Source of the DNA: a bacterium
Lineage (GTDB): Bacteria > Verrucomicrobiota > Kiritimatiellia > RFP12 > CAIWXQ01
Direction: 5' to 3'
Assembly: GCA_037144015.1 (NCBI GenBank)
Contig: JBAWXQ010000001.1
Coordinates: forward strand, 1-48,161
DNA: 48,161 nucleotides
The position numbers and the translations under genes were made by a program. This document shows, piece after piece, positions 546 to 38,538 of this stretch. The notes below the pieces were generated by a model. It was not told where the DNA came from, did not search any database, and saw nothing but the letters and a program-made list of their open reading frames with translations. Each line of letters opens with the position of its first letter. The stretch's first letter is position 1.

Positions 546-3500
546 ATGCCAGCCAAAGAGGACAAAATCCCTGATGCAAGTCCGGCGCCGTCGCCGGACT
601 TGCACAGGCGGCTGCGCCGCCGGCTCTGGTTGCTTCTCGCGCTGCTGGCGGCGGTGGGTGCGGCTACGGCTACGGCGCCGACCGGCTGGCTGCCGCGCCT
701 GGCCAACGCCCTGATCTGCGAGTATCTGCGCGTGCGGGACCTCTCCGCCATCCAGGTGCGTGTGGAACGGCTGACCCCCTGGCATTTGCGTGCCGCGCTC
801 CAGTTCGGCACCAACGATCCGGTTTCGCGGATCGAGCGCCTCGAGGCCCGCTTCTCTCCGGGGAGCTTGTGGCGGCATGGCGTTGCGCAGGTGGATGTCG
901 ACGGCGGCCTGCTGCAGTTCCGCACAGCGCCCGGCGGCGTGAGCGTCTGCGGCCTGCCGTCCGGCCTGCGGCGCCTGTCTCCCGGCACGTCGCCGCTCGC
1001 GGACGAGGACGATGTCCCGGTGCGGTGGCAGGTGGGGAAATTGCTGCTGGACAATGTCACCCTGCGCCTGCTGCCCCCGGAGGCCGGCGCCGCGCCGTTT
1101 GACATCTGCCTGCACGCCTCGGCTGTGACCGACCCGCAGGGCGAGACCCGCTTTGCCATCTCGGACTACGGCCGCGCCGGCACGCTGGCCAACGGCGCTT
1201 TCCGGTTCGAGACCGGCGACGGCTGGCTCGTGGCCGTGCTGCCGGAAAGCCAGGTGCAGGAGTGGCTGCGCGTGGCCCAGTGGTTCATGACGAACCCGCG
1301 ATTCCAGGGGAGCGACCTGTGCGCCGGGAACGGCGGCGCCACGCTGCTGGCCCGCATGGAGCAGTGGCGGCCGGCGCTGGTGCAGGGCGATCTCTCGCTG
1401 CGCGCCGCCACGCTGCTCCAGGACTGCAGCTTCACGTACGATCTGCGCCTGCACGGCGTGGCGCAGTGGGAAATGGCGGACAGCCTGCGCCCCACCATCA
1501 CGGCCAACGCGCAAGTCGGTCTGCGCATGGCTTCCTTTCCGGCTTTTGCCTGGTCGGATGACCACGAGCAGCCGGCCAGCGCCAGCGTGGCCGTCAAGCT
1601 GACGCCGCGCAAGGCCGAATGGGAGTGTCAGGTGGCGGCACGCGGGGCGTTGTCGCACGAGGCGGCGCAGGTCAGCGTGCCGACCGGTTCCGTGCAATTG
1701 CCGGAAGCCCCGGTCTTCCGGATCGATGGCGTGTTCACCAGCCCGGACCTGGCGACGTGGGATGGCGCTATCGAGGCCATGGCCATTGTGCCGCAGCCAC
1801 GGCTGCCGGCCGGGGACATGGCGCTGGCCTGCCGCGACCTGGTGGTTCAGGCCACGGCCACGGTGACCCACTCGCAGCCCGCGGTCGTGCGCGGACGTGT
1901 CGATCTTTCCGGGGTTTCGTGCGCCGGCCGCGGCATCCGGCTGGCCGGGGATGCGGGTGTGTCGTTCGGGTCAAGCGCCCCGTTTCAGTGTGCGAACGTG
2001 GCGGTCACGGCCGGCGTGGCGTCGCTGACCCTCCCCGCGGGGGCGGTTTCGTTCGACAAGGATGAACCCCTGCGGATGATCGCATCCGCAACATTGGCGC
2101 GCGCTCCGGACGGACGGGTTTCCGTCTGCGCGGCGGAGCTGAATGTGGCGCCGCAGCAGATGATCACGGGAAATACGCGGCTGGGGCTGCCTGACGGGCT
2201 GCAGTTACGGATGCGCCGCAGCGGAGAGAATCCGGACGGCATGACCGTGGAACTGCTGCCCGCTCCGGTCGCCGGGCAATCCGGCACCGGCATGGCGGCC
2301 ACGGCCTGGGTTTCCGCCGCCGCGTTTGTCGGCCGGCAAAGGAGCAGCACCGTCTCCTGTGGCGATATGACCCTGCGCGTGACGAATGTGCTGTTTCGTG
2401 CCGCTGAGCTGACCGGCGGCGTGGCCAGCGCGGATGTGACTGTGAGTAACGATAAAGCCGGCGGGCTGGCCTCCCGGTCCGCGCCTCGCATCCGCGCGGA
2501 GATTTCAGGTGCCTGGCTGCGCGGCAGGAATGGACTGCAGCTCGATGGGTTGCAGGCGCTGCTGCCGCTGGAATGCGTGGACCGTGAGATTCGCGTGGCC
2601 GGCCTGCCCGGACTGACGTGGCGCAACCTCGAATGCCAGGGCGTGCACCTGGTTCCGGAAGGGTTTGCACTGTCGCTGACCGGGCAGACGGCCGCGGTGC
2701 AGATGTCGGTTGGCGTGCTGGAGGCGAACCTGCATGCCAGCCTTGGCGTGTATGCGGACTGGAGCCGCGCGTGGCAGGTGGCGGTGACCGCGGAGGTGCC
2801 GCCCAGCACGCTGGCTGACACCGAGGCGCTGCGCGGCATGATCTGGCGGCTGGCAGACATGGACCTGGTCGTCACGGGGCAGGTTGCGGCCACGGTGAGC
2901 GCCCTGCTGGCAAAGGATCTGCCGCCAAGCGTAAAAGTGTCCGCCGCTGTCGGGAACCTCGATGTCGGGTGCCTGTCTGGAAAGTGGCAGGTGTCCGGAT
3001 TGTCCGCCGGCCTGACGGCGGATGGCCCGCGCGCCTGGCGCACGCCGCAGGGGCAGGTGTTGACGTTCCGCTCGGCCCGGTCCGGCGACCTGGCTCTTGA
3101 TGGCGGCGCACTGCGCTGGCAGTACCGGCGCGAGGCGCTGCTGGTGGAGCAGGCGGACGTCAACTGGTGCGGCGGCTCACTGCACGCCTTTGGCGTGCCG
3201 TACGACCCGCGCGAACAGCGGCTGGAGACGGTGCTGTACGCCGAGCGGATCGAGCTGGGGCGCCTGATGGCGCAGACCCGGATGCTGCAGGGCTCGGGCG
3301 CGGGGCGGCTGTACGGGCGCCTCCCGCTGACGCTCGACAAGGGGAAGGTGAAGCTGTCGGAGAGCTACCTCTATTCGACGCCCGGCGAGACGGGAAGCCT
3401 CAAGCTTTCCAACACCGCCCCGATCGAGCTGGCCATGGAGCAGGGGAGCATCGATGCCGCCACCCGGCAAAAGGTGAGCGCAGCCCTGCAGAATATGCAA

Positions 3501-3680
3501 TACTCCCTGTTCCGGATGGATCTTTCCGGCGGCGGCGCCAACGCGTCCCTGGGAATTCAAATCGAGGGGCGCGCGGCGGAGGACGCGGCTGCGCCGCCCG
3601 TGCATCTCAACGTGAACCTGGGCGGTTCACTGGATGAGTTCTTTAATTTTGGCATGGACCTGTCACGAAAGCTGCGCTAG
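546..3680 (+). CDS. ydbH: AsmA-like intermembrane phospholipid transport protein, YdbH family (1044 aa)
   Basis: N-terminal TM anchor (LWLLLALLAAVGAA). C-terminal region resembles the YdbH/DctA-YdbH family (GRLYGRLPLTLDKGKVKLSESYLYSTPGETGSLKL). Followed by ynbE- and ydbL-like genes as in the E. coli ydbH-ynbE-ydbL operon. Confidence 0.75.
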   Translation: MPAKEDKIPDASPAPSPDLHRRLRRRLWLLLALLAAVGAATATAPTGWLPRLANALICEYLRVRDLSAIQVRVERLTPWHLRAALQFGTNDPVSRIERLEARFSPGSLWRHGVAQVDVDGGLLQFRTAPGGVSVCGLPSGLRRLSPGTSPLADEDDVPVRWQVGKLLLDNVTLRLLPPEAGAAPFDICLHASAVTDPQGETRFAISDYGRAGTLANGAFRFETGDGWLVAVLPESQVQEWLRVAQWFMTNPRFQGSDLCAGNGGATLLARMEQWRPALVQGDLSLRAATLLQDCSFTYDLRLHGVAQWEMADSLRPTITANAQVGLRMASFPAFAWSDDHEQPASASVAVKLTPRKAEWECQVAARGALSHEAAQVSVPTGSVQLPEAPVFRIDGVFTSPDLATWDGAIEAMAIVPQPRLPAGDMALACRDLVVQATATVTHSQPAVVRGRVDLSGVSCAGRGIRLAGDAGVSFGSSAPFQCANVAVTAGVASLTLPAGAVSFDKDEPLRMIASATLARAPDGRVSVCAAELNVAPQQMITGNTRLGLPDGLQLRMRRSGENPDGMTVELLPAPVAGQSGTGMAATAWVSAAAFVGRQRSSTVSCGDMTLRVTNVLFRAAELTGGVASADVTVSNDKAGGLASRSAPRIRAEISGAWLRGRNGLQLDGLQALLPLECVDREIRVAGLPGLTWRNLECQGVHLVPEGFALSLTGQTAAVQMSVGVLEANLHASLGVYADWSRAWQVAVTAEVPPSTLADTEALRGMIWRLADMDLVVTGQVAATVSALLAKDLPPSVKVSAAVGNLDVGCLSGKWQVSGLSAGLTADGPRAWRTPQGQVLTFRSARSGDLALDGGALRWQYRREALLVEQADVNWCGGSLHAFGVPYDPREQRLETVLYAERIELGRLMAQTRMLQGSGAGRLYGRLPLTLDKGKVKLSESYLYSTPGETGSLKLSNTAPIELAMEQGSIDAATRQKVSAALQNMQYSLFRMDLSGGGANASLGIQIEGRAAEDAAAPPVHLNVNLGGSLDEFFNFGMDLSRKLR

Positions 3681-3737
3681 CAGCTAGTCGGGCTTAGCCT
3701 TTTCGCTGCACAAACTTTTTGCCGACAAAGCTGCTAG
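3677..3737 (+). repeat. Family-P palindromic element, copy P1 (61 bp, CTAG at both ends)
   Basis: CTAGCAGCTAGTCGGGCTTAGCC...TGCCGACAAAGCTGCTAG. Arms pair 9+5 bp. First CTAG contains the ydbH TAG stop. Confidence 0.9.
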
Positions 3738-3975: not shown

Positions 3976-4350
3976 ATGAATTACAAGCGAATGATGCTGG
4001 TGGCCGTGACGTTCCTGGGGCTGGCGCTGGCGGCGCAGGCGCAGGGGCTGGATGCGGTGAAGCAGAGCATGCTTGCCCGCAAGCCTGCAGTGGCGCAGCT
4101 GCTGGCGAGCAAGACCGTCGGCGAGAACCGCGACGGTCTGCTGGAGGCGACCGCCAAGGTTGCGGACGCCGACGCGAAGACCGTCGCGGCGGAGAATGCG
4201 GACCGCAAGGCCGTCTACGCGGCGATTGCCGCCAAGAACGGTACGGACGTCGCCAAGGTCGGCCAGTTGCGCGCGGCCGAGATTGCGGCCAGGGCCGAGG
4301 CCGGGACCCTGATCCAGGGCAGGGACGGCACGTGGGCCGGGAAAAAGTAG
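3976..4350 (+). CDS. ydbL: YdbL-like periplasmic protein (DUF1318 family)
   Basis: Signal peptide MLVAVTFLGLALAAQA. ENADRKAVYAAIAAKNGTDVAKVGQLRAAEIAARAEAGTLIQGRDGTW is collinear with E. coli YdbL. GGGAGA SD. Confidence 0.8.
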   Translation: MNYKRMMLVAVTFLGLALAAQAQGLDAVKQSMLARKPAVAQLLASKTVGENRDGLLEATAKVADADAKTVAAENADRKAVYAAIAAKNGTDVAKVGQLRAAEIAARAEAGTLIQGRDGTWAGKK

Positions 4351-4362
4351 CCGGGTCGCGGG

Positions 4363-4401
4363 TCTCTTTCTCTGTGGCCTTTGTGTCCTTCCACTTGGAT
4401 G
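4363..4401 (+). repeat. K-family fragment K1 (right arm only)
   Basis: TCTCTTTCTCTGTGGCCTTTGTGTCCTTCCACTTGGATG matches the right ends of K2 (12925-12961) and K3 (34889-34933). Confidence 0.85.
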
Positions 4402-4406
4402 ATTCC

Positions 4407-5883: not shown

Positions 5884-6000
5884 GTGATCGGTGATCGGTT
5901 GCCAGTGATTGGTAACGGGTAACCGGTGATCGGCGAATGGATCACTGCTCACGGTAACCGATCACCGATCACCGATTACTGATTACTGAGTACCGATCAC
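5884..6000. repeat. Inverted arrays of tandem heptamers: TGATCGG-type units (5885-5947) facing CCGATCA-type units (5958-5999)
   Basis: Left block reads TGATCGG TGATCGG TTGCCAG TGATTGG TAACGGG TAACCGG TGATCGG CGAATGG. Right block reads CCGATCA CCGATCA CCGATTA CTGATTA CTGAGTA CCGATCA. The blocks are mutually complementary. Confidence 0.9.
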
Positions 6001-7411: not shown

Positions 7412-8091
7412 ATATGACGATCCGGATCGCCGGCATGCTCGCCGCATGCTTCTTCCTGCTGTCGGAATTGCAGGCGCAGGAAACCGCCGCGGTGTCGCCC
7501 ACCGGAGGTGTGTCTGTCGCCGCACCTGCCGCCGCACCTGCTGCTGCACCTGTCGCCGTACCTGTCGCCGCACCTGCTGCTGTACCTGTCGCCGCACCTG
7601 TCGCCGCACCTGCGACCACAGGAAAAGTTCATGCGGCCAAGCAGCCGAAAAGCGGCGCCCCCGCTTTTTTCAACCTGTCGGACGGGTCGTCAACCAACGG
7701 CATGACGATCACCTTCGACCGCCTGGAGTTCGACTACAAGGACATGGTCGCGGCCTACGACGGGCATGTGCGCGTTTTGGATTCGCGCTATGACATGATC
7801 TGTGATCGTCTGTTGGTTTTCCTGGAGGGGACCAACCAGATCAAGCAGATCATGGCCATGGGGAATGTGGTCATTACCCAGCCGGACCGGCGGGCAACCT
7901 GCAACCGGGCTGTCTATCAGCGCGCGTCCGAGCAGGTGGAGATGACCGGAAACCCCGTGGTGACCCAGGGTGGAAACCGGCTGGTGGGTGCCAAGATTCG
8001 CATCTGGCTGAATGACCAGCGTGCCGAAGTGGAATCCGGCCGCATGAACCTGGCGACCGAAACCATGAAAAACCGGGAAAGCAAGCCGTGA
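7408..8091 (+). CDS. lptA: LPS transport periplasmic protein LptA (OstA-like), with Ala-Pro-rich linker
   Basis: Signal peptide. OstA-like body ITFDRLEFDYKDMVAAYDGHVRV...ATCNRAVYQRASEQVEMTGNPVVTQGGNRLVGAKIRIWL. GTG at 7408 or ATG at 7414. 4-nt overlaps with both neighbours. Confidence 0.7.
   Translation: MNMTIRIAGMLAACFFLLSELQAQETAAVSPTGGVSVAAPAAAPAAAPVAVPVAAPAAVPVAAPVAAPATTGKVHAAKQPKSGAPAFFNLSDGSSTNGMTITFDRLEFDYKDMVAAYDGHVRVLDSRYDMICDRLLVFLEGTNQIKQIMAMGNVVITQPDRRATCNRAVYQRASEQVEMTGNPVVTQGGNRLVGAKIRIWLNDQRAEVESGRMNLATETMKNRESKP
7519..7614 (+). repeat. In-frame tandem repeat: eight 12-nt units (GCCGCACCTGYY), organised as two 36-nt super-units (7531-7566, 7567-7602)
   Basis: The two 36-mers differ at 2 positions. 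Encodes (A-A/V-P-A/V)n in LptA. Confidence 0.9.

Positions 8092-9693: not shown

Positions 9694-9704
<11 letters not shown>
9408..9704 (+). CDS. ptsH: Phosphocarrier protein HPr / NPr (98 aa)
   Basis: Active-site context NRYGMHVRPAG (His) and GKSIMALMTL (Ser46-type). GGAGAG SD. The track ORF from 9231 is an extension. Confidence 0.85.
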
Positions 9705-11477
<1,773 letters not shown>

Positions 11478-11481
<4 letters not shown>

Positions 11482-11537
11482 CAGCTTGTCGGATTTAGCG
11501 CTTACCTTTACAAACTTTGTGCCGACCAAACTGCTAG
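11478..11537 (+). repeat. Family-P palindromic element, copy P2 (60 bp)
   Basis: CTAGCAGCTTGTCGGATTTAGCG...CAAACTTTGTGCCGACCAAACTGCTAG. First CTAG contains the ptsI TAG stop. Confidence 0.9.
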
Positions 11538-11598
11538 TTTTGGGGACGCAACCGCCAAGCGCCGGACAACAGTGTCATGCGCTACCAAAAGAGTAACC
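11538..11598 (+). repeat. G-module extension shared by P2 and P4
   Basis: TTTTGGGGACGCAACCGCCAAGCGCCGGACAACAGTG...CAAAAGAG aligns with 30542-30605. Confidence 0.8.
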
Positions 11599-11681
11599 CT
11601 ATACGGCGCAGTAGATGGCCGTTGTTGAGGCTCAAGGTTCAGATCCTGCCGGCAATACGCTGGAGCCGTCAGTCCCCCGGC

Positions 11682-12746
11682 TCACCTGGCATCCAGCTGC
11701 CGCAGCATTTCCACGACGACCTGCCCCACGGCGGTCAGGCTGGTGGCGGAAAGTTTGTCCAGCGTGTCGTCGGGCGTGTGCCAGTAGTCGTGCCGCCCGG
11801 GGGCGCTGCCGTAGACGAAGTCAATCAGGTCCACCGCCGGGAATCCGGCGTCGAGAAACGCCTGGTGGTCATCGAGGATCCGCCGGTCGGCGAGGCGGAA
11901 GCTGTTGCGAACGCCGGCTGTTTTCGCCGCCTCCAGTGCCAGGAGCGTCAGGTGCAGGGTGCCGTTGTCCGGCAGCGTGATGGAGAGGTCGCGGTCGCCG
12001 ACCATGTCCAGCAGGATCACGGCGCGGATGTGCCGTTTTCCCGCCGCGAGCTGTGCGGCGAGCCGGTGGCTGCCATGGAATCCGTCGCGCGGGCCGTACT
12101 GCACGCGGCACTCTTCGCCGTCGAGAAAGCCGAACAGCACGTGGCACTGGCGCAGCGGCGTGCTGCCAAGCACCCGGGCAAGCTCCAGCAGCAGGCCGGT
12201 GGACGATCCGCCGTCGTTCGCGCCGACAAAATTGGTGCTGATGCCGCTCTTGGTGTCGAAGTGCGAGAGCAGCACGATGCAACCGCCCGGCGTTTCCACA
12301 GGTGGCCCGTGCGCTCCGCGCGCGGGCAAGTGACGGGACTGCTGCAGGTCGTGTGCGCTGCCCGTGCGCGGAGCGCCCGGGCCACCTTCCGTACGCGGCA
12401 GAATAGTGGCCAGCACGTTGCGGCAGACGAGGGGGCCGGCGGGGGTCTCGTTGGTAAAGGTGTCGATGCCCGCGGCGAGACCGTGGCGCTGCAGTTCGGC
12501 AGCCAGCCACTGCGCGGTGCGCGCGGCGCCGGGCGTGCCGGCATCGCGCGGCCCCAGCGTGCAAAGAGCGGCCACGCGCGCCAGGGCGTTGGAGCCGTTG
12601 GCGGCGGTGAAGGGAATTGCGGCGGAAAGCATCGCGGGTGCCCGGGAAACCGGCGCCGGGTCACAGGCGCATGTCAGGGCGATGAGGCAGGCGACGGTGC
12701 CGCCCAGGCGAATCACAGAATATCGAATATCGGGCCGCAGACGCAT
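11682..12746 (-). CDS. M28 family metallopeptidase (aminopeptidase / glutaminyl-cyclase-like), probably secreted
   Basis: NDGGSSTGLLLELARVL, FLDGEE, LLDMVGDRD and YWHTPDDTLDKL metal-ligand motifs. Start taken at MRLRPD because the upstream part of the track ORF runs through repeat K2. Confidence 0.8.
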   Translation of the reverse strand: MRLRPDIRYSVIRLGGTVACLIALTCACDPAPVSRAPAMLSAAIPFTAANGSNALARVAALCTLGPRDAGTPGAARTAQWLAAELQRHGLAAGIDTFTNETPAGPLVCRNVLATILPRTEGGPGAPRTGSAHDLQQSRHLPARGAHGPPVETPGGCIVLLSHFDTKSGISTNFVGANDGGSSTGLLLELARVLGSTPLRQCHVLFGFLDGEECRVQYGPRDGFHGSHRLAAQLAAGKRHIRAVILLDMVGDRDLSITLPDNGTLHLTLLALEAAKTAGVRNSFRLADRRILDDHQAFLDAGFPAVDLIDFVYGSAPGRHDYWHTPDDTLDKLSATSLTAVGQVVVEMLRQLDAR

Positions 12747-12783: not shown

Positions 12784-13006
12784 AAGGCGGGCGTCAGCCC
12801 GCAACCCGACAATTGCACAACTCGAGGACACTGAGAGCACCAAGAGTAACAGAGATCACAGAGAAATTCCCGACTGCGGCCGGCGATTCGGCCGCAGCAG
12901 TATGAATTCTCTCTGTGCTCTCTATCTTTCTCTGTGACCTCTGTGTCCTTCCACTTGGATGCCCAACATACACGCAAAAACGTGTATGTTGACTGGAAAG
13001 GTGCTA
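12784..13006 (+). repeat. K-family composite element, full copy K2 (~223 bp)
   Basis: Left hairpin GCGGGC-GTCA-GCCCGC. Imperfect palindrome of CACAGAG/CTCTGTG arms around CTGCGGCCG-GCGATT-CGGCCGCAG. Right hairpin ACATACACG-N6-CGTGTATGT. Alignable by eye over its full length with 34756-34981. Confidence 0.9.
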
Positions 13007-17624: not shown

Positions 17625-18512
17625 ATGAAGCCCGCCCCCGTGCATACCACCGTCGGCTTCATCGGCACCGGCGTCATGGGGCGATCCATGGCCGGGCATC
17701 TGCTGGATGCCGGGCATCACCTGCTGGTCTATAACCGGTCCCGTGACAAGGCCGGCGACCTGCTCCGGCGCGGTGCCGTGTGGTGCGACACGCCCGCCGC
17801 CCTGGCCGCCGGATGCGATGTGGTGTTCACCATCGTCGGGTTTCCCGCGGATGTGGCGGAGGTCTACCTCGGCGGGCACGGGCTGGTGGCGCATGCCCGG
17901 CCGGGCGCCGTCCTGGTCGACATGACCACCTCCAGCCCGTCCCAGGCAGAGCAGATTGCGGCCGCGGCCGCGGCGCGCGGCGTCTTCGCGCTGGATGCGC
18001 CGGTCACCGGCGGTGACAAGGGCGCACGCGAGGCCACGCTGGCCATTCTGGTTGGCGGTGACCCGGCGGCTTTTGCGCACGTGCGGCCGCTGCTGGCGCT
18101 CATGGGAAAAACGATCGTGCACCTGGGCGCGGCCGGCTGCGGCCAGCACGCGAAGCTGGCCAACCAGATCGCCATTGCCGGCACGATTCAGGGCGTGTGC
18201 GAGGCGCTGGCCTATGCGCAGGGCATGGGGCTCGATACCGCCAGGCTGCTGGATGCGATCGACAGCGGCGCGGCCGGCAGCTGGCAGCTGCGCAACGTCG
18301 GCCCCAAGATGCTGAGCGGCGACTTCGCCCCGGGCTTTTTCGTGAAGCATTTTGTCAAGGACATGACCCTGGCCCTGGATGCGGCGAGCCGCGCCGGCAT
18401 CGAACTGCCGGCGCTGAAGCTCGCGCGGGATCGCTACGCCGAGTTGGCCACCGCCGGCGGGGCGGAACTCGGCACGCAGGGGATTTTTCGCGAATACGAC
18501 GAAAAATCCTAG
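17625..18512 (+). CDS. NAD(P)-dependent oxidoreductase, 3-hydroxyisobutyrate/2-hydroxy-3-oxopropionate reductase family
   Basis: Rossmann VGFIGTGVMGRSMAGHL. DAPVTGGDKGAREATLAILVGG. KLANQIAIAG. KDMTLALD. Start at the ATG at 17625 after AAGGAAA. Confidence 0.85.
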   Translation: MKPAPVHTTVGFIGTGVMGRSMAGHLLDAGHHLLVYNRSRDKAGDLLRRGAVWCDTPAALAAGCDVVFTIVGFPADVAEVYLGGHGLVAHARPGAVLVDMTTSSPSQAEQIAAAAAARGVFALDAPVTGGDKGAREATLAILVGGDPAAFAHVRPLLALMGKTIVHLGAAGCGQHAKLANQIAIAGTIQGVCEALAYAQGMGLDTARLLDAIDSGAAGSWQLRNVGPKMLSGDFAPGFFVKHFVKDMTLALDAASRAGIELPALKLARDRYAELATAGGAELGTQGIFREYDEKS

Positions 18513-18569
18513 CAGCCGGGTCGGCAGACGATGGCTGTCTCCACACGGCTAAGCCCGACTGGCTGCTAG
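18509..18569 (-). repeat. Family-P palindromic element, copy P3 (61 bp, inverted relative to P1)
   Basis: The reverse complement starts CTAGCAGCCAGTCGGGCTTAGCC, 22/23 identical to P1. The left CTAG holds the plus-strand TAG at 18510-18512. The right CTAG holds the minus-strand TAG at 18568-18566. Confidence 0.9.
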
Positions 18570-18787
18570 AAGTTGATGTCGAGCTGCGTGGTCACCGTGT
18601 TGGCGCCGGCCACGGACTTTTTGTTGTAGACGTCGTAGCCGAGGATCACGGAAACGTTGGGCGTGAAGGCCCAGGCCACGCCGAAGTTGAGCGCGCCCAG
18701 GGCGTTCTTCCCGCCCTGGTAGTCCACGGCCAGCCAGAGACGGTCGTCGATCTCGCTCAGCGTGCGGTCCCAGGAGAGCAGGAACTT
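18566..18787 (-). pseudogene. Remnant of an outer-membrane porin gene (last ~73 codons only)
   Basis: Hand translation: KFLLSWDRTLSEIDDRLWLAVDYQGGKNALGALNFGVAWAFTPNVSVILGYDVYNKKSVAGANTVTTQLDINF-stop. Alternating beta-strand pattern with C-terminal Phe. An in-frame TGA lies at 18790-18788. An SD-ATG at 18791 is in another frame. Confidence 0.5.
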
Positions 18788-18810
18788 TCATTTTGCATCT
18801 CCTTTGGTCA

Positions 18811-18837
18811 TCGCGCTGCGGGGCAGCGCTCCTACAG
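18811..18837 (-). repeat. REP-like R-family unit R1 (TCGCGCTGCGGGGCAGCGCTCCTACAG)
   Basis: Core hairpin GCGCTGC-GGG-GCAGCGC. Same unit as at 29246-29275. Confidence 0.85.
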
Positions 18838-18859
18838 TTGTGAAGGGACAATGATGTGC

Positions 18860-18889
18860 CAACAAAGGTTTTCCGGAACGGAAAACCTA
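18860..18889 (-). terminator. Hairpin terminator candidate for amtB-glnK (AGGTTTTCC-GTTCC-GGAAAACCT, then TTGTTGG)
   Basis: 9-bp stem whose first two nt are the AG of the glnK TAG stop, followed by a U-rich tail. Confidence 0.55.
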
Positions 18890-19228
18890 GCCGATGGCCG
18901 CGCCGCCGGTTTCGCCCGTGCGCACGCGGATGCACTCGCTCATCTCGAGCACAAAGATCTTCCCGTCGCCGATCTCGCCGGTCCTGGCGCCGTTCAGAAT
19001 CGCGTCCACGGCAGCCTTGAGGTAGTCGTCGTTGACGGCGATCTCCAGCTTTACCTTCTTGAGCAGGCTGCCGGCTTCGCAGTGGCTCCGGTAGACCGTG
19101 GCGATCCCTTTCTGTCGGCCGCGCCCCATTACGTTTGACACGGTAACCAGGTGAATTTCCTTCTGCTCAAGCAGGTCCAGCACGTGATCCAGGCGGTCCG
19201 GCTGAATGATCGCAATAACGTACTTCAT
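18887..19228 (-). CDS. glnK: P-II family nitrogen regulatory protein
   Basis: MKYVIAIIQP..., T-loop GRGRQKG, C-terminal TGEIGDGKIFV...IRVRTGE. Immediately downstream of amtB. Confidence 0.9.
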   Translation of the reverse strand: MKYVIAIIQPDRLDHVLDLLEQKEIHLVTVSNVMGRGRQKGIATVYRSHCEAGSLLKKVKLEIAVNDDYLKAAVDAILNGARTGEIGDGKIFVLEMSECIRVRTGETGGAAIG

Positions 19229-22526: not shown

Positions 22527-23339
22527 ATGTACACAATCCTGATCAGTCTTCTCCTGGGCATATCGGTGAGCGCAACCCTCTGGTTCACGCACGCCACACA
22601 GCACCGGGTCTGGGTGGCGGTGTGGGGCCTGCTGGGGGTTATTGCCGGCCAGATTTCGCTCGGGCTGATCCTGCGCCGCAAGATTAAAAAGGCGATGGAC
22701 GCCGTGCAGAATGTGCTCCTGTCGGGGCAGAAGAAGCTGCAGCAGAAGATCAGCCACTGGCAGATGCGGCCGCCGGGAAGCCTCAAGCAGGCGCAGCTCG
22801 AAATGGAGCGCGACCAGCGCGTCTTCATCGAACAGGCGCTGGAAGCCTCGAAAGGGATGGAGAAATTTGTCCGCTGGACGCTGATGCTGGACCGGCAGAT
22901 CGCCACCCTGCGCATGCAGCTTCACTACCAGCTCAAGGAGTATCGCAAGGTGGATGCCCTTCTGCCCAAGTGCATGTTCATGGACCCCATGACCGCGGCC
23001 ATGAAGCTCGCCCGCCTGCATGTGCGCGATGAAAGGACGGAGGCCGCGAAGTTCTTCCACAAGCAGACCCGGCGCCTGCGCTACGGGCAGGGGGCGATCC
23101 TGTACGCGCTCTACGCCTGGATGCTGGTGCAGCGGCAGGAGACGGAAGCCGCGCACAAGCTGCTGGTGCGCGCCTGCGAGAAGATGGAAAACGAGGTCCT
23201 CAAGGCCAACCGCGACCATCTGGCCAACAACCGCCTCAACCAGTTCTCCAATGCCGGCCTGTCCGAGGAATGGTATGCGCTCGGGCTCGAGCAGCCCAAG
23301 GTCAAGATGCAGCGCCAGCGCCACCCGGGGCAGTACTAG
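22527..23339 (+). CDS. Hypothetical membrane protein: two N-terminal TM helices plus a ~200-aa helical domain
   Basis: Clean 270-codon frame with no competing recognisable gene on the opposite strand. TM1 ILISLLLGISVSATLWF and TM2 VWVAVWGLLGVIAGQISLGLIL. No family recognised. Confidence 0.6.
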   Translation: MYTILISLLLGISVSATLWFTHATQHRVWVAVWGLLGVIAGQISLGLILRRKIKKAMDAVQNVLLSGQKKLQQKISHWQMRPPGSLKQAQLEMERDQRVFIEQALEASKGMEKFVRWTLMLDRQIATLRMQLHYQLKEYRKVDALLPKCMFMDPMTAAMKLARLHVRDERTEAAKFFHKQTRRLRYGQGAILYALYAWMLVQRQETEAAHKLLVRACEKMENEVLKANRDHLANNRLNQFSNAGLSEEWYALGLEQPKVKMQRQRHPGQY

Positions 23340-30379: not shown

Positions 30380-30388
30380 GCTTAAAAA

Positions 30389-30414
30389 CGCCATCTCGTA
30401 TGGCGGTTTTTTTT
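30389..30414 (+). terminator. Rho-independent terminator after tRNA-Leu
   Basis: CGCCAT-CTCGT-ATGGCG followed by G and T8. Confidence 0.8.
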
Positions 30415-30443
30415 ATCGCCCGGGCGTTTGGCGCCGGGCCCAA

Positions 30444-30479
30444 GGCAGGCTGACGCCCGCAGTCCAACAATTGCATAAG
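30444..30479 (+). repeat. K-family left module (variant) interrupted by P4
   Basis: AAGGCAGGCTGACGCCCGCAGTCCAACAATTGCATAAG versus K2 AAGGCGGGCGTCAGCCCGCAACCCGACAATTGCACAAC. Confidence 0.75.
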
Positions 30480-30541
30480 CTAGCAGCCTGTCGGATTTAG
30501 GTTTTGCGTCTGCACACGGTTCGTGCCGACCAGGCTGCTAG
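30480..30541 (+). repeat. Family-P palindromic element, copy P4 (62 bp)
   Basis: CTAGCAGCCTGTCGGATTTAGG...GTGCCGACCAGGCTGCTAG. Not adjacent to a CDS. Confidence 0.9.
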
Positions 30542-30605
30542 TTAGTGGGACGCAACCGCCAAGCACTGGACAAGAGTGAAATACGCAACAAAAGAACAGC
30601 CGGAA
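30542..30605 (+). repeat. G-module extension (second copy)
   Basis: TTAGTGGGACGCAACCGCCAAGCACTGGACAAGAGTG...CAAAAGAAC aligns with 11538-11598. Confidence 0.8.
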
Positions 30606-30632
30606 CAATTTTTCTGTCTGTAACTGAGTCTT

Positions 30633-30847
30633 CGCAACCCGCGGGCAGCGGGTTGCACAACTAGGAGACTGTCGGCAGAAGGCCCTGGACCGATCCGAGG
30701 CCTAAGTCCGACAGCCTCCTAGGACACCGAGAGCACAGAGAGGAATAGAGGGCACAGAGGAATTCCTGTCTGCGGCCGGCTTCCCGGCCCGGGCAAGCAG
30801 AAATTGACTCTGCGCTCTCATTTGATCTCGGTGCCCTCTGTGTCCTT
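30633..30847 (+). repeat. K-family element K4 (variant) carrying nested P5
   Basis: CGCAACCCGCGGGCAGCGGGTTGCACAA-[P5]-GGACACCGAGAGCACAGAG...GGTGCCCTCTGTGTCCTT. Confidence 0.8.
30661..30722 (-). repeat. Family-P palindromic element, copy P5 (62 bp, divergent termini CTAGGAG.../...CTCCTAG), nested in K4
   Basis: CTAGGAGACTGTCGGCAGA...GGCCTAAGTCCGACAGCCTCCTAG. The interior matches the P3 orientation. Left and right terminal changes are compensatory. Confidence 0.85.
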
Positions 30848-30899
30848 GACGTCGCATGAATGAAGATGCGCCGCATTTGCATCTCGCACAACGAACAAT

Positions 30900-31574
30900 C
30901 TATTTACTGGCTGTACAGACCCAGATGCAGCAATGACGGGAGCGCGCGCCTTTGTACGTTGGTGCAGGGATGCATTGCACGCGGACCTGCTCCTGCCGCA
31001 GGCGGCGCTCGAACGCAGCATCCTGAAAGGCGGACCAGACCGCGAGGCAACCGTTTGACCGGAGCGCATCGAGGCAGGCGCGGATGCCTTGCGGGCTGTA
31101 GAGCTGCTCGTTGCGATTATCGGTAATGGCCTCGGGGCCGTTGTCAACGTCGAGCAGGATGGCATCAAACGCGCCGGGGGACTGGCGGATGACGCTGGCC
31201 ACATCTTCGACCTTGAGGACCACGCGAGGGTCCCGCAGCGGGTGATTGGCCAGGTTCCCGATGTAGTCACGGTTCCACCGGACGATCTCGGGCAGCAGCT
31301 CGGCAACGACCACCGTGGCGCGCGCTTTCAGCATGTCGAGCGATTGCCGCAGGGTGTAGCCCATGCCGAGGCCGCCGATCAGGACCCGGGGCGCGCGATG
31401 TCCGGTCAGGCGGGCGCACCCGAGGCGCGCGAGTTCTTTCTCCGACTCGTGGGCACGGCTCACCATCAGGTCGTGCTGGCCCACGGTGATGACGAAGTCA
31501 TCCTGGTGCCGGTAGAGCACCAGGCGGCTGCCGTCCGGGGCGTTGGTTGTGGCGATCTGCGTCCTGGCCTTCAC
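30900..31574 (-). CDS. Spermidine-synthase-like class I methyltransferase-fold protein
   Basis: VLIGGLGMGYTLRQ (SAM-type glycine motif), FDAILLDVDNGP and LYSPQG, typical of the spermine/spermidine synthase-like family. GTG start. Confidence 0.65.
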   Translation of the reverse strand: MKARTQIATTNAPDGSRLVLYRHQDDFVITVGQHDLMVSRAHESEKELARLGCARLTGHRAPRVLIGGLGMGYTLRQSLDMLKARATVVVAELLPEIVRWNRDYIGNLANHPLRDPRVVLKVEDVASVIRQSPGAFDAILLDVDNGPEAITDNRNEQLYSPQGIRACLDALRSNGCLAVWSAFQDAAFERRLRQEQVRVQCIPAPTYKGARSRHCCIWVCTASK

Positions 31575-31725: not shown

Positions 31726-31772
31726 AAGGACACAGAGGCCACAGAGAATGAAGGAGAGCACAGAGAGAATTT
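31726..31772 (-). repeat. K-family half copy K5 (inverted right arm)
   Basis: AAGGACACAGAGGCCACAGAGAATGAAGGAGAGCACAGAGAGAATT equals the reverse complement of the K2/K3 right arm. Confidence 0.8.
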
Positions 31773-34755: not shown

Positions 34756-34981
34756 AAGGCGGGCATCAGCCCGCAACCCAACGAATGAACACGTCAAGGA
34801 CACCGAGAGCACAGAGAACAACCGAGACCACAGAGAACTGCCTGTCCACGGCTGGCGAGCCGGCCGCAGCAGCATGAATTTCTCTCTGTGCTCTCTTGCT
34901 TTCTCTGTGGCCTCTGTGTCCGTCCACTTGGATGCTCCTACATAGACGCAAGAACGTGTATGTTGACCGGAAAGGAGCTAA
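34756..34981 (+). repeat. K-family composite element, full copy K3 (~226 bp)
   Basis: Same three-module layout and orientation as K2. The arms contain a duplicated 19-mer, CA(C/A)CCGAGA(G/C)CACAGAGAA. Confidence 0.9.
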
Positions 34982-35061: not shown

Positions 35062-37752
35062 ATGGACAAGCACTACGATCCCAAGGCCGTGGAGGCCAAA
35101 TGGTACGCCTGGTGGGAGGCGCAGGGCTTTTTTCATGCCGACCTCGCGCAGGGCGGTGAGCCGTACTGCGTGATGATCCCGCCGCCGAATGTGACCGGCA
35201 TCCTGCACATGGGCCACGCGCTCAACAACACCGTCCAGGACATCCTGGTGCGCTGGCGCCGCATGCAGGGGCGCAACACCCTCTGGATGCCGGGCACGGA
35301 CCATGCCGGCATTGCCACGCAGAACGTGGTGGAAAAGGCGCTGCGCAAGGAGGGCTCCGGGCGGCATGAACTGGGACGCGAGGCGTTTGTCGAGCGCGTC
35401 TGGTCCTGGCGCAGGGAGTACGGCGGCACGATCGTGCGCCAGCTGCGCCAGCTCGGCGCCAGCTGCGACTGGCCGCGCGAGCGCTTCACCATGGACGAGG
35501 GGATGAGCGCGGCCGTGGCCGAAGTCTTCTGCCGCCTCTACAACGAGGGGCTGATCTACCGCGGTAACTACATCGTGAACTGGTGCCCGCGCTGCCACAC
35601 CGCGCTCTCGGACGAGGAGAGCGAGCACCAGGAGACGCAGGGGAGCCTCTGGCACATCCGCTACCCCGTGTCGGACGGCACCTTTGTGACCGTGGCCACG
35701 ACGCGCCCCGAGACCCTGCTCGGCGACACGGCCGTGGCCGTCAACCCGAAGGACGAGCGCTACGCCGGCCTGCACGGCAAGACGGTCCTGCTGCCGATCC
35801 TCGGCCGCGCGCTGCGCGTGGTGGCCGACGACTACGTGGACGCCGCGTTCGGCACGGGCGTGGTGAAGATCACCCCGGCCCACGACCCCAACGATTTTCA
35901 GGTGGCGCAACGCCACGGCCTGCCGTCCCTGAACGTGATGAACGGCGACGGCACCATGAACGAGGCCGCCGGCCCGTACGCGGGCATGGACCGGTTTGCC
36001 TGCCGCAAGAAACTCGTGGCCGACCTGGAGGCCCAGGGGCTGCTGGACAGGGTCGAGCCGCACCTGCACGCCGTGGGCCACTGCTACCGCTGCGACACCG
36101 TGGTCGAGCCGCGGCTTTCGCTGCAGTGGTTTGTGCGCATGAAGCCGCTGGCCGGCGCGGCCATTGAAGCGGTCCGCGGCGGGCAGGTGCAGTTCACCCC
36201 AAAACGCTGGGAAAAGACCTACCTCGACTGGATGGAAAACATCCGCGACTGGTGCATCTCGCGCCAGATCTGGTGGGGGCACCGCATCCCGGTCTACACC
36301 TGCGGCGGCTGCCGGCACGAATGGGCCGCGCCCGCCGCGCCGGCGTCCTGCACGAAGTGCGGCGCCGGCAGCAGCGCCATCACGCAGGATCCGGACGTGC
36401 TCGACACCTGGTTCTCCTCGTGGCTCTGGCCGTTCAGCACGCTGGGGTGGCCGCAGAAAACCGCGGAGCTGGAAAAATACTACCCGTCGCACGACCTGGT
36501 GACCGCCCCGGAGATCATCTTCTTCTGGGTGGCGCGCATGATCATGGCCGGCTGCAAGTTCATGGGCGAGCCGCCGTTCCGCAACGTGTACATCCACGGC
36601 ACGGTGCGCGACGACCGCGGCCGCAAGATGAGCAAGAGCCTCGGCAACTCCATCGACCCGCTCGACATCATCGAGCAGTACAGCGCCGACGCGCTGCGCT
36701 TCAGCATGATGATGATCACGGCCACCGGCCAGGACGTCCAGGTCAACCTGGACAAGTTCGAGATCGGCCGCAACTTCGGCACCAAGATCTGGAACGCCGC
36801 GCGCTTCCTGCAGCTGCACATGGAAAAGACGGCCGGGCTCGACTGGCGCGCGCTGGCCACCGCCGCGCCGCAGCTTGATCCGGCGCGGCTCACGGATGAC
36901 GACCGCCACCTGCTGGCCAAGGGCGATGCGGCGGTGCGCCTGCTGACCGCCCACCTGGAGCAGTTCCGCTTCCAGGACGGCGCGCGCCTCCTGTACGACT
37001 TTGTCTGGAGCGACTTCTGCGACTGGTATGTCGAGTATGCCAAGGGCGACCTCTACGGCGAAGATGCCGCGCGCCGCGAGCAGGTGCTGCGCCTGATGAC
37101 GCACGTGTTTGCAAACATCCTGAAGCTGCTCCACCCCTACATGCCGTTCCTCACCGAAGAGCTCTGGCACGCCATGGGGTACGCCACGGCGGAAGAGACC
37201 ATCCTGCTGGCGCCGTGGCCGCTGTCGCTGGCAGAGGCCGCTGCGGCCGCATATGGCCTGGGCGACGCCACCACCGCCTATGTGGAGGCCAAGCACGAGC
37301 TGATTGGCGCGGGGCGCACCCTGCGCGCCGAGTACGGCATTGCTCCGGCCAAGCTGATTCGCTACGTGATCCACACCGTGGACGCGGCCACGGCGGCGCG
37401 GTTCGAGCTCGACCGGCGTCCGCTGCTGGCGCTCCTGCGCGCCGAGGCCGTGGAGATCGTCTCCGGTGGCGAGGCCTGCGGCATGCCCGGCGCGCTGGGC
37501 AAGCTCGGCACCATCTACCTGCCGCTGGCCGGCCTGATCGACGTGCCGGCCGAGGTCACGCGCGTGCGGGGAGAGCTGTCCAAGTCTCGCGGCTTCCTGC
37601 AGGGCGTCGAGTCCAAGCTGGCCAACGAATCCTTTGTCGCCAAGGCGCCGCCGCAGGTCATCGAGCAGCAGCGTGCGAAGCGGGTGGAGCTGACGGAAAC
37701 CATCGCCCGGCTGGAGCGCCTGGAGAAGACGCTGCAGGCCGTGGGATCCTAG
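35062..37752 (+). CDS. valS: Valine-tRNA ligase
   Basis: PPPNVTGILHMGHAL (HIGH), KMSKSLGN (KMSKS), the editing domain, and a C-terminal coiled coil. Confidence 0.97.
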   Translation: MDKHYDPKAVEAKWYAWWEAQGFFHADLAQGGEPYCVMIPPPNVTGILHMGHALNNTVQDILVRWRRMQGRNTLWMPGTDHAGIATQNVVEKALRKEGSGRHELGREAFVERVWSWRREYGGTIVRQLRQLGASCDWPRERFTMDEGMSAAVAEVFCRLYNEGLIYRGNYIVNWCPRCHTALSDEESEHQETQGSLWHIRYPVSDGTFVTVATTRPETLLGDTAVAVNPKDERYAGLHGKTVLLPILGRALRVVADDYVDAAFGTGVVKITPAHDPNDFQVAQRHGLPSLNVMNGDGTMNEAAGPYAGMDRFACRKKLVADLEAQGLLDRVEPHLHAVGHCYRCDTVVEPRLSLQWFVRMKPLAGAAIEAVRGGQVQFTPKRWEKTYLDWMENIRDWCISRQIWWGHRIPVYTCGGCRHEWAAPAAPASCTKCGAGSSAITQDPDVLDTWFSSWLWPFSTLGWPQKTAELEKYYPSHDLVTAPEIIFFWVARMIMAGCKFMGEPPFRNVYIHGTVRDDRGRKMSKSLGNSIDPLDIIEQYSADALRFSMMMITATGQDVQVNLDKFEIGRNFGTKIWNAARFLQLHMEKTAGLDWRALATAAPQLDPARLTDDDRHLLAKGDAAVRLLTAHLEQFRFQDGARLLYDFVWSDFCDWYVEYAKGDLYGEDAARREQVLRLMTHVFANILKLLHPYMPFLTEELWHAMGYATAEETILLAPWPLSLAEAAAAAYGLGDATTAYVEAKHELIGAGRTLRAEYGIAPAKLIRYVIHTVDAATAARFELDRRPLLALLRAEAVEIVSGGEACGMPGALGKLGTIYLPLAGLIDVPAEVTRVRGELSKSRGFLQGVESKLANESFVAKAPPQVIEQQRAKRVELTETIARLERLEKTLQAVGS

Positions 37753-37795
37753 CAGCTTGCCGGGCGCAGCCTTTGCGCTTCAAAACTTTGTATGG
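37749..37795 (+). repeat. Family-P element, degenerate copy P6 (left arm and loop only)
   Basis: CTAGCAGCTTGCCGGGCGCAGCCTTTGCGCTTCAAAACTTTGTATGGAG. The CTAG holds the valS TAG. The right arm is missing. Confidence 0.75.
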
Positions 37796-38538
37796 AGGGC
37801 TCGACGATGTCTGCATCAGACCACGCAAGCGTACACGGATCGCCCGGGGAAGGGGCGCGGATGGCGGGCATTGCCCGCGCGATCTTCCCGCTGCTGGTGG
37901 CGCTGTTCTGCATCGGCTATGTGGCCGGTGCCGCCTCCGGCGCCACCATCAGCGGCTGGGCCGCGGGCACGATTCTGCTGCTGGCCGGCGTGCTGCTGCT
38001 GCTGGGCGCCACGTCCGGATCCCGGCGGATCGCGGCGTTTTTCACGGGCGCGGCCGGCGAGGAGATTGTGGCGCGCGAGCTCGCGCGCCTGCCGGCCGGC
38101 TACCACGTGTTTCATTCGCTGGACGCGGGCGGCGGCTTGCTCATGTGGCGCGGCGGTGACATTGACCATGTGGTCGTCGGGCCCACCGGCGTGTTTGCCG
38201 TTGAGACCAAGAACTGGCGCGGCCCGGTGACGCTGGCGGATGGGCGCCTGCTGCTGGCGGGCGCGGCGCCGCGCCGCGAGCCGCTGGCGCAGGTGCGGCA
38301 GGCGGTTTCGGCGCTGCAGGTGCGGCTGGGGCGCGCAGGCATCTACCATGTGGACGTGGTGCCCGTGGTCTGCTTTGCCAGCGATTGCCTTGCCGCGGCC
38401 AGCCAGGCCGACGGCGAGGCCGTGGTCTGCAACGCCGCCTCGCTGCTGGATGTGCTGACGGATGAACGCCGGCGCGCCGGCGCGCGGGTGGATGTGGCGG
38501 GTGTGGCCAGCGCGTTGAGCTCGACCCGCGCCGGATGA
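37792..38538 (+). CDS. NERD-domain protein with two N-terminal TM helices
   Basis: TMs IFPLLVALFCIGYVAGAA and AAGTILLLAGVLLLLGA. NERD core GEEIVARELARL...GGDIDHVVVGPTGVFAVETKNW. Alternative start at 37807. Confidence 0.7.
   Translation: MEGSTMSASDHASVHGSPGEGARMAGIARAIFPLLVALFCIGYVAGAASGATISGWAAGTILLLAGVLLLLGATSGSRRIAAFFTGAAGEEIVARELARLPAGYHVFHSLDAGGGLLMWRGGDIDHVVVGPTGVFAVETKNWRGPVTLADGRLLLAGAAPRREPLAQVRQAVSALQVRLGRAGIYHVDVVPVVCFASDCLAAASQADGEAVVCNAASLLDVLTDERRRAGARVDVAGVASALSSTRAG

Follow-up and report, generated by a model that had tools for sequence, protein, structure and literature searches.

A 61-nucleotide palindromic element, here called P, lies between two convergent reading frames at positions 18509-18569 of a 48,161-nucleotide stretch of the Kiritimatiellia contig JBAWXQ010000001.1 (the window, by which we mean this whole stretch). 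On the basis of sequence comparison, P is very probably a miniature inverted-repeat transposable element (MITE) whose source was one end of an ISAzo1-like, CTAG-using insertion sequence (IS) of the IS1182 family. The element and the two frames that end in it are as follows.

17625-18512, plus strand: gene for a HIBADH-type NAD(P)-dependent dehydrogenase, 295 amino acids
18509-18569, minus strand: P element, a probable MITE of 61 nt in the opposite orientation to the copy at 3677, with a core CAGC...GCTG between two CTAGs and a 15-bp terminal stem
18509-18512, plus strand: left CTAG, in which the HIBADH-type gene has its stop codon, TAG (18510-18512)
18566-18569, minus strand: right CTAG, whose TAG (18568-18566) ends the porin-like frame on the minus strand
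18566-18791, minus strand: porin-like outer-membrane protein pseudogene, with its start region (MKVPALL) kept and its last 72 codons out of frame

The sequence of the element is CTAGCAGCCGGGTCGGCAGACGATGGCTGTCTCCACACGGCTAAGCCCGACTGGCTGCTAG. A sequence-only reading of the window had proposed that one palindrome supplies the stop codons of two convergent frames, and both TAGs do lie within the CTAGs of 18509-18569; it had also described the element as inverted relative to the copy at 3677, and the reverse complement is indeed identical to that copy at 22 of the first 23 nt. The HIBADH-type open reading frame carries the Pfam domains NAD_binding_2 and NAD_binding_11, and three public assemblies carry the identical protein as a called gene. 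The porin-like open frame on the minus strand comprises 73 codons and ends in ...TTQLDINF*, closed by the TAG at 18568-18566. Five frames in all had been said to end in P-element CTAGs, and we could confirm this for the YdbH-like, PtsI, HIBADH-type, porin-like and ValS frames. P probably abuts or splits stop codons that were already present and would thus not be the creator of these stops.

Full-length elements that encode a transposase have the outer arm of P, CTAG-CAGCnnGTCGGACTTAG, as their terminal inverted repeat; P itself ends in CAGCnnGTCGGACTTAG on one side and, on the other, in roughly the first 15 nt of it, inverted. One such element, in locus L203, was found via the look-up of HIBADH orthologues. 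There the HIBADH stop (GCC TAG) is followed by the left arm of P, a gene on the opposite strand for a 478-aa transposase, and a complete inverted P. The transposase (L203:1182-2615) contains the domains DUF772, DDE_Tnp_1 and DDE_Tnp_1_6 and scores 321.6 bits against the NCBIfam IS1182 model (NF033551, cutoff 270 bits). Further full copies, found by tblastn, are present in L167 (91% identical) and L098 (83%), and all three loci encode a 478-aa protein with the same score of 321.6 bits. The full-length copies measure 1.7-1.8 kb. At L203:994-2764 and L167:113-1883 (1771 bp), CTAGCAGCyyGTCGGACTTAG faces outward at either end, and the two L203 termini are complementary at 90% over 21 nt. The L167 element has CTAG outside each end and a full P hairpin at each end with the P-left arm facing outward, and in L098 the same terminus lies on a truncated left-end P with a full P at the other end. 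The transposase of L215 is 66% identical and lies between perfect 21-nt termini, tCTAGCAGCCTGTCGGACTTA and TAAGTCCGACAGGCTGCTAGa, that have no inner hairpin arm; this 7.9-kb locus contains just two CTAGs, both of which flank the IS. CTAG flanks every IS copy examined.

Perfectly inverted termini of this kind, CTAGCAGCGTGTCGGACT and CTAGCAGCCTGTCGGACTT, are also found in ISAzo1 from plasmid 2 of Aromatoleum aromaticum EbN1 and in an element on the Pseudomonas aeruginosa plasmid CP109686 (18 and 19 nt at 100% complementarity), and the transposases of both are about 48% identical to the L203 protein. On these alignments, a catalogued IS subgroup has the arm of P as its canonical terminus and is constantly flanked by CTAG. 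The explanation preferred in the sequence-only reading, an IS5-like element with a preference for CTAG sites, thus gains support, as IS1182 is IS5-related and CTAG-flanked full elements carry exactly the termini of P. Transposases whose terminal repeats resemble CAGCNNGTCGG, which that reading had suggested looking for, are those of the IS1182-family DDE elements in L203, L167, L098 and L215, of ISAzo1 and of the P. aeruginosa IS. We also considered an inner TTTG...CAAA unit as the real IS with P merely beside it, and rejected it, since in L215, ISAzo1 and the P. aeruginosa element a P-type arm forms the very end, with no boundary of an inner unit.

A metagenome scan with the core pattern CAGCNNGTCGGNNTTAG...GCCGAC...GCTG yielded 118 contigs (891 kb), mainly from the window's own project (SESD, SESE, SESH). 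The CTAG flanks were not part of the pattern, and still 188 of the 192 full-length P copies have CTAG at both ends; the many copies without CTAG flanks that, on the earlier suggestion, would have spoken against a site preference are therefore not seen. Neighbouring or tandem copies have one CTAG in common. The de-duplicated set comprises 182 copies of 60-63 nt in distinct flanks, and 15 identical 61-mers each recur in two or more different flanks, which argues for the mobility of P. The arms fall into four subfamilies (CAGCCTG, CAGCTTG, GAGACTG and GAACCTG), and the two arms agree in 144 of 178 copies. A gene stop adjoins 81 of the 182 copies (45%), at the P-left end (the GTCGGRYTTAG side) in 71, at the other end in 4 and at both ends in 6; four of these six double-stop copies, those in the window, L148, L170 and L135, involve long, credible open reading frames.

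In most of the 182 copies, the repeats that follow the inner end of P are the subterminal regions of the IS copies described above, and one of these repeats includes the transposase leader with a TTGACA promoter-like box. Most P copies are thus the ends of full or internally deleted ISs, which accounts for their strong apparent orientation bias. A T-rich stretch past the inner end of P was considered as a U-tract or as a target preference and rejected, as it is the start of IS/MITE interior modules; the genuinely unique flanks of P copies show no T preference. Pairing of left and right arms by regular expression found no long elements in the P-selected contigs.

Within the window, nhmmer with a profile built from the obvious copies located six P copies, the sixth of which is decayed. 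Those other than the copy at 18509 are the following.

3677-3737, plus strand: P copy whose left CTAG is the stop of a YdbH-like gene (gene 546-3680, stop 3678-3680)
11478-11537, plus strand: P copy whose left CTAG is the stop of ptsI (gene 9694-11481, stop 11479-11481)
30480-30722, plus strand: composite MITE of 243 nt, made of P (30480-30541), a 119-nt M module (30542-30660) and an inverted P' (30661-30722)
37749-37808, plus strand: decayed P copy that has lost its right arm (nhmmer match to 37807-37808) and whose left CTAG is the stop of valS

The ribosome-binding site and ATG of the next gene come 14 nt past the right CTAG of the copy at 3677. The valS gene occupies 35062-37752 (stop 37750-37752), and a NERD-domain gene begins at 37792, within the decayed remnant. 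The composite lies downstream of a tRNA-Leu gene and its outer ends are CTAG; its P' on the minus strand belongs to the GAGR subfamily, with GAGR replacing CAGC. This composite is an internally deleted form of the IS (P, M module, inverted P'), and the M module, whose first bases resemble the IS subterminal regions, is probably the interior of such a deleted element. An M-module fragment (about 11538-11603) also directly follows the copy at 11478; the module contains a hairpin, GCAACCCGCGGGCAGCGGGTTGC, and recurs in dozens of contigs.

CTAG had been described as scarce in the window, and it is: there are 22 sites, as against 51 +/- 5.6 in dinucleotide shuffles, and 12 of the 22 belong to P copies. 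The accompanying statement that most of the remaining sites are also at C-TAG stops overstates the case, since only half of them (5 of 10) are stops of credible genes; one more lies in a tRNA-Glu. The five are the following.

14030: stop of an asd-type gene
16785: stop of a nadB-type gene
18887: stop of a P-II gene
19309: stop of an ammonium transporter gene
23336: stop of the gene ending at 23339

The abundance of P at stop codons probably follows from target choice in combination with stop-codon usage. TAG ends 21 of the 35 credible genes of the window and is preceded by C in 9 of them. It is the commonest stop in the window (59%) and makes up 47% of stops in the related contigs L084-L201 and 40-45% in L204, L207 and L210, which have no P at the locus; in other taxa from a genome scan its share is 9-33%. 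In genomes of 66% G+C, TGA is normally the dominant stop, and the TAG majority of the window is thus unusual. Since TAG is also frequent in relatives without P at the locus, the preference for TAG belongs to the lineage and does not result from P. The relatives of ValS named by NCBI are Kiritimatiellia metagenome-assembled genomes, at 73-74% identity. CTAGs internal to genes number 0-2 in the window, as against 6.3 +/- 2.3 under codon-order shuffling; their rarity inside genes stems from codon usage and a high G+C content at third codon positions.

The transposase could accept P as a mini-IS of 53 nt and place it in CTAG sites, and the insertion would duplicate the target, either CTAG or its central TA. 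As CTAG is palindromic and would be restored at both ends, insertion into a C-TAG stop would leave the gene intact. With TAG as the main stop and CTAG rare inside genes, most of the harmless CTAG targets would be stops, and surviving copies would be expected to lie flush against them. Palindromes or stem-loops are targets of IS1182-family members (PMC5678879), and ISPsy36 of this family has the 4-bp palindromic target GGCC (PMC8027508). The sequence-only reading had also named, as evidence against its view, an occupancy of stop CTAGs no higher than that of other CTAGs. P occupies 4 of the 9 stop CTAGs of the window and 1 of the 6 that lie elsewhere, a difference that is not significant (one-sided Fisher p about 0.29). 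For the P-selected contigs the figures are 81 copies and 32 free CTAGs at stops, and 101 copies and 241 free CTAGs away from stops; this sample is biased, and its free class includes CTAGs within genes and other repeats; the higher occupancy of stops there is what CTAG targeting and the purging of in-gene insertions would lead one to expect.

Orthologous loci were compared as well. The HIBADH stop and what follows it are, locus by locus:

Window: TCC TAG, inverted P
L202: GAC TAG, inverted P
L203: GCC TAG, IS in forward orientation
L206: GAA TAG, unoccupied; 169-nt spacer, and the porin gene ends in TAA
L204/205: AAA TAG, unoccupied
L210/211: GCG TAG, unoccupied
L207-209: CGG TAG, unoccupied
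L212, L213/214 and L001: TGA, unoccupied

All three C-TAG stops of the HIBADH orthologues are thus occupied and none of the ATAG, GTAG or TGA stops is. As the orientations of the insertions differ (inverted P as against forward IS), at least two independent insertions occurred at this stop. A scan of a genome collection with the HIBADH protein returned one fairly close relative (L001, 78%), without P, and P is present in none of the 80 loci. The nadB-type stop also differs in occupancy between the related genomes: it is a bare CTAG in the window (16785), and in L202 it is followed by an insert made of P, whose far CTAG hosts another small nested element, and an M-module fragment. The nadB-type stop codon is unchanged with or without P. 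The nested element (about L202:4179-4272) has inverted ends CGAGGTTTC/GAAACCTCG and flanks CTA|A...T|TAG, which fit a TA duplication within CTAG, and it may represent a second type of transposon that uses this target.

The stop of the porin-like frame does fall in the right CTAG of P as claimed; the frame itself is the remnant of a pseudogene that has suffered a deletion, and the gene is intact, at 255 aa, in L202 and L206. In L202, whose HIBADH is 89% identical, it reads MKVPALLPIVGLL...TTQLDVNF* and is convergent with the HIBADH gene. Relative to this intact gene, the window keeps the first eight bases and has then lost 542 nt in a frame-shifting internal deletion between copies of a short direct repeat, TCCTGCTCT, where the sequence picks up again. 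The remnant is 93.5% identical to the L202 gene, and the deletion is therefore recent. In L202 and L206 the native protein ends in a C-terminal Phe directly before the stop codon. The porin-like gene sits downstream of the ammonium transporter and P-II genes.

As the flanks of an inserted element were contiguous before insertion, the two-stop arrangement has two possible origins. P could have inserted into a CTAG common to the convergent genes, which would then have overlapped by the 4 bp of their stops; the junction would read ...AAA TCC TAG AAG TTG... (minus strand AAC TTC TAG), with AAATCCTAGAAGTT as the P-free form. Alternatively, P could have inserted at one stop, and an element-mediated adjacent deletion could then have extended to the next CTAG, which, CTAG being nearly confined to stops, would be the stop of the other gene. 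Among the orthologues, none has the HIBADH and porin genes on a bare common CTAG, as the genes of L206 are spaced apart and the others have no porin gene.

Several observations weigh against the derivation of P from a CTAG-using IS and against a simple history of its insertion at this site. No clean empty site was found: a BLAST search of the left flank, CTAG and right flank of each P against all loci gave only tandem-repeat artefacts, and the duplication of CTAG (or TA) is therefore something we infer rather than observe. The nadB-type stop is not a clean empty site either, since the window has 22 unrelated bases where L202 has the insert. No polymorphic P copies or indels appeared in an all-against-all megablast of the loci. 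The window contains no full-length IS and no transposase, and in its own metagenome project (SESD/SESH contigs) only transposase fragments were found, two of the four at contig ends. In the more distant L206, the convergent genes lie 169 nt apart with non-CTAG stops, so that a 4-bp overlap is not ancestral to the wider group. Finally, the P shared by the window and L202 (6046-6105) is about 55% identical in its interior and about 91% in its arms, and the four-fold degenerate sites of the adjacent HIBADH genes are 85% identical between the two. Simple descent from one insertion does not fit well with such an interior; the divergence could have come about through turnover as copies re-inserted, through gene conversion between copies or through rapid mutation of the loop.

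A bolder proposal builds on the IS1182 derivation and on the unusual rank of TAG as the main stop of the lineage. A CTAG-targeting IS1182 element would in effect have become a transposon that homes to stop codons, and the host would have co-opted its 61-nt hairpin as a bidirectional structure, a terminator or RNA stabiliser, that convergent genes share at their 3' ends; the HIBADH/porin copy in two lineages would be an example. We regard this as rather doubtful. We found nothing that supports a selected terminator role or a required host function.

A related explanation, the alternative named in the sequence-only reading, dispenses with target choice: the hairpins would be kept at gene ends as 3'-end structures, either bidirectional terminators or mRNA stabilisers, like some repetitive extragenic palindromic (REP) or Correia elements, and their position at stop codons would reflect selection. 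Folding of the copy at 18509 gives a hairpin with a 15-bp stem that is stable on both strands (-31.6 kcal/mol on the plus strand and -29.5 on the minus strand, with z of about -3.6 and -3.1), and on the minus strand it is followed by GAUUUUUCG; in L202 and L203, a five-T run follows the element on the strand opposite HIBADH. The loop, however, is about 30 nt, unlike that of intrinsic terminators, which have a short G+C-rich stem, a loop of 3-8 nt and a T run, and a consensus terminator scan of 18300-18900 was negative on either strand. Rfam 15 reports only four tRNAs in the window, with nothing at 18400-18700 at E up to 1. The window and L202 carry P at the same site; the arms are conserved apart from a single paired change that affects both of them, and arm subfamilies stay complementary in the 144 of 178 copies noted above, but matching arms are equally expected of inverted repeats recognised by one transposase. 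A terminator at 3677, 14 nt before the next ribosome-binding site, would break an operon, and the orientation bias mostly vanishes when copies within larger elements are set aside. The position of P is accounted for, without any function, by its CTAG flanks and by arms that are identical to IS termini, and selection as a 3'-end structure appears distinctly unlikely. The hairpin, the minus-strand T run and the paired arm change fit a structural role and fit plain transposon biology equally.

It is also very improbable that P is an IS630/Tc1-type MITE whose insertion duplicates the TA within CTAG. CTAG is a known target of IS630, the CTAG flanks of P are equally compatible with duplication of TA only, and the flanks of the nested element of L202 fit such a duplication, but we saw no IS630-type transposase, and the termini of P match those of IS1182-family elements base for base. 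Hardly tenable at all, and rejected here, is the reading of P as a REP- or REPIN-type element that owes its spread to a REP-associated tyrosine transposase (RAYT): P is indeed short, extragenic, palindromic and of high copy number, and a RAYT gene is present on a P-bearing contig (L189:95-556; NCBIfam REP_Tyr_transpos, NF047646, 83.9 bits), but the repeats on either side of this gene are GGTGGCCCG-type palindromes (GGTGGCCCGyGCGCTCCGCGCGCGGGCA) rather than P, REPs have a GTAG/CTAC head that P does not have, and the arm of P is the terminus of DDE-transposase elements. The palindromes beside the RAYT gene form a second family, present at 12300-12387 of the window, L189:1-830 and L204:10890-11000, which together with the L189 RAYT looks like a classical REP/RAYT system apart from P.

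Other repeats of the window were noted alongside P. Repeats of 100-180 nt rich in CACAGAG/CTCTGTG occur at 12784-12962, 30723-30859, 34756-34935, 31726-31772 and 4347-4402, and often begin exactly at the CTAG beside P copies. In one of them, at 30745-30834 on the minus strand, Rfam gives a weak match to the NiCo riboswitch (19 bits against a gathering score of 37, E 0.14) that is probably due to chance; a search of 30380-30900 with Rfam 15 gave only sub-threshold matches at chance level. An inverted repeat at 70-214 has 41-nt arms of GACGAAG-like units and a CTAG (144) in its 63-nt spacer, and GACGAAG/CTTCGTC-rich sequence adjoins P' copies in L098, L106 and L183. Another, at 5891-6000, is made of GTGATCG/CCGATCAC heptamer-like units, and a similar CACTGATCAC array is found in L210 (~12030-12130). 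At 7502-7633, a 12-nt tandem repeat (CTGTCGCCGCAC-like, at least 8 units) lies apparently within a coding region.

Thus, the ending of many genes of an uncultured lineage in a palindromic repeat, one copy of which closes two convergent frames, can be explained without a new mechanism, and P at two stops, neat as it is, reflects ordinary behaviour of a transposon. Stop codons become a safe landing site for a transposon through the combined effect of target specificity, stop-codon usage and purifying selection, and the TAG-rich stop usage of the lineage is a more unusual fact than P itself. For annotation, it follows that a P copy, the 243-nt composite or the parent IS can be read as the mark of a gene end, and that none of them is to be called a gene or small RNA; they are also a cause of assembly breaks. 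In the literature, we found no specific description of a CTAG/stop-codon MITE of this kind.

Among known systems, ISAzo1 and the P. aeruginosa CP109686 IS share with P the terminal inverted repeat CAGCnnGTCGGACT(T) and a CTAG on both flanks, and the transposases of P-ended elements meet the same NCBIfam IS1182 model; P differs from them in being 61 nt long and without a transposase, and the P-linked transposases are only about 48% identical to the annotated ones. The IS copies of the window's lineage carry end hairpins: L167 has a complete one at either end, and L203 and L098 have one only on the transposase-proximal side, whereas a repeat scan of ISAzo1 and L215 gives no inner hairpin arm. 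The Correia elements of Neisseria, the RUP elements of Streptococcus pneumoniae and the ERIC elements are, like P, short and non-coding, with inverted repeats and a fixed short target repeat, and they too are present in many copies, often at gene ends, and can fold as hairpins in transcripts. P differs from these elements in the family of its parent IS, in its target (CTAG, as against TA for Correia and RUP) and in being shorter than most. IS1272 of staphylococci belongs to the same IS1182 family, members of which target palindromic DNA (PMC5678879), but its reported transposition replaces stem-loops, with no target duplication and no fixed target sequence, whereas P and its IS have a fixed CTAG on both sides. 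REP elements, bacterial interspersed mosaic elements (BIMEs) and REPINs resemble P as extragenic palindromes that form mosaic arrays with other repeat modules at gene ends; unlike these RAYT-associated repeats, P takes its termini from a DDE-transposase IS, and the RAYT gene of this community is flanked by another repeat.

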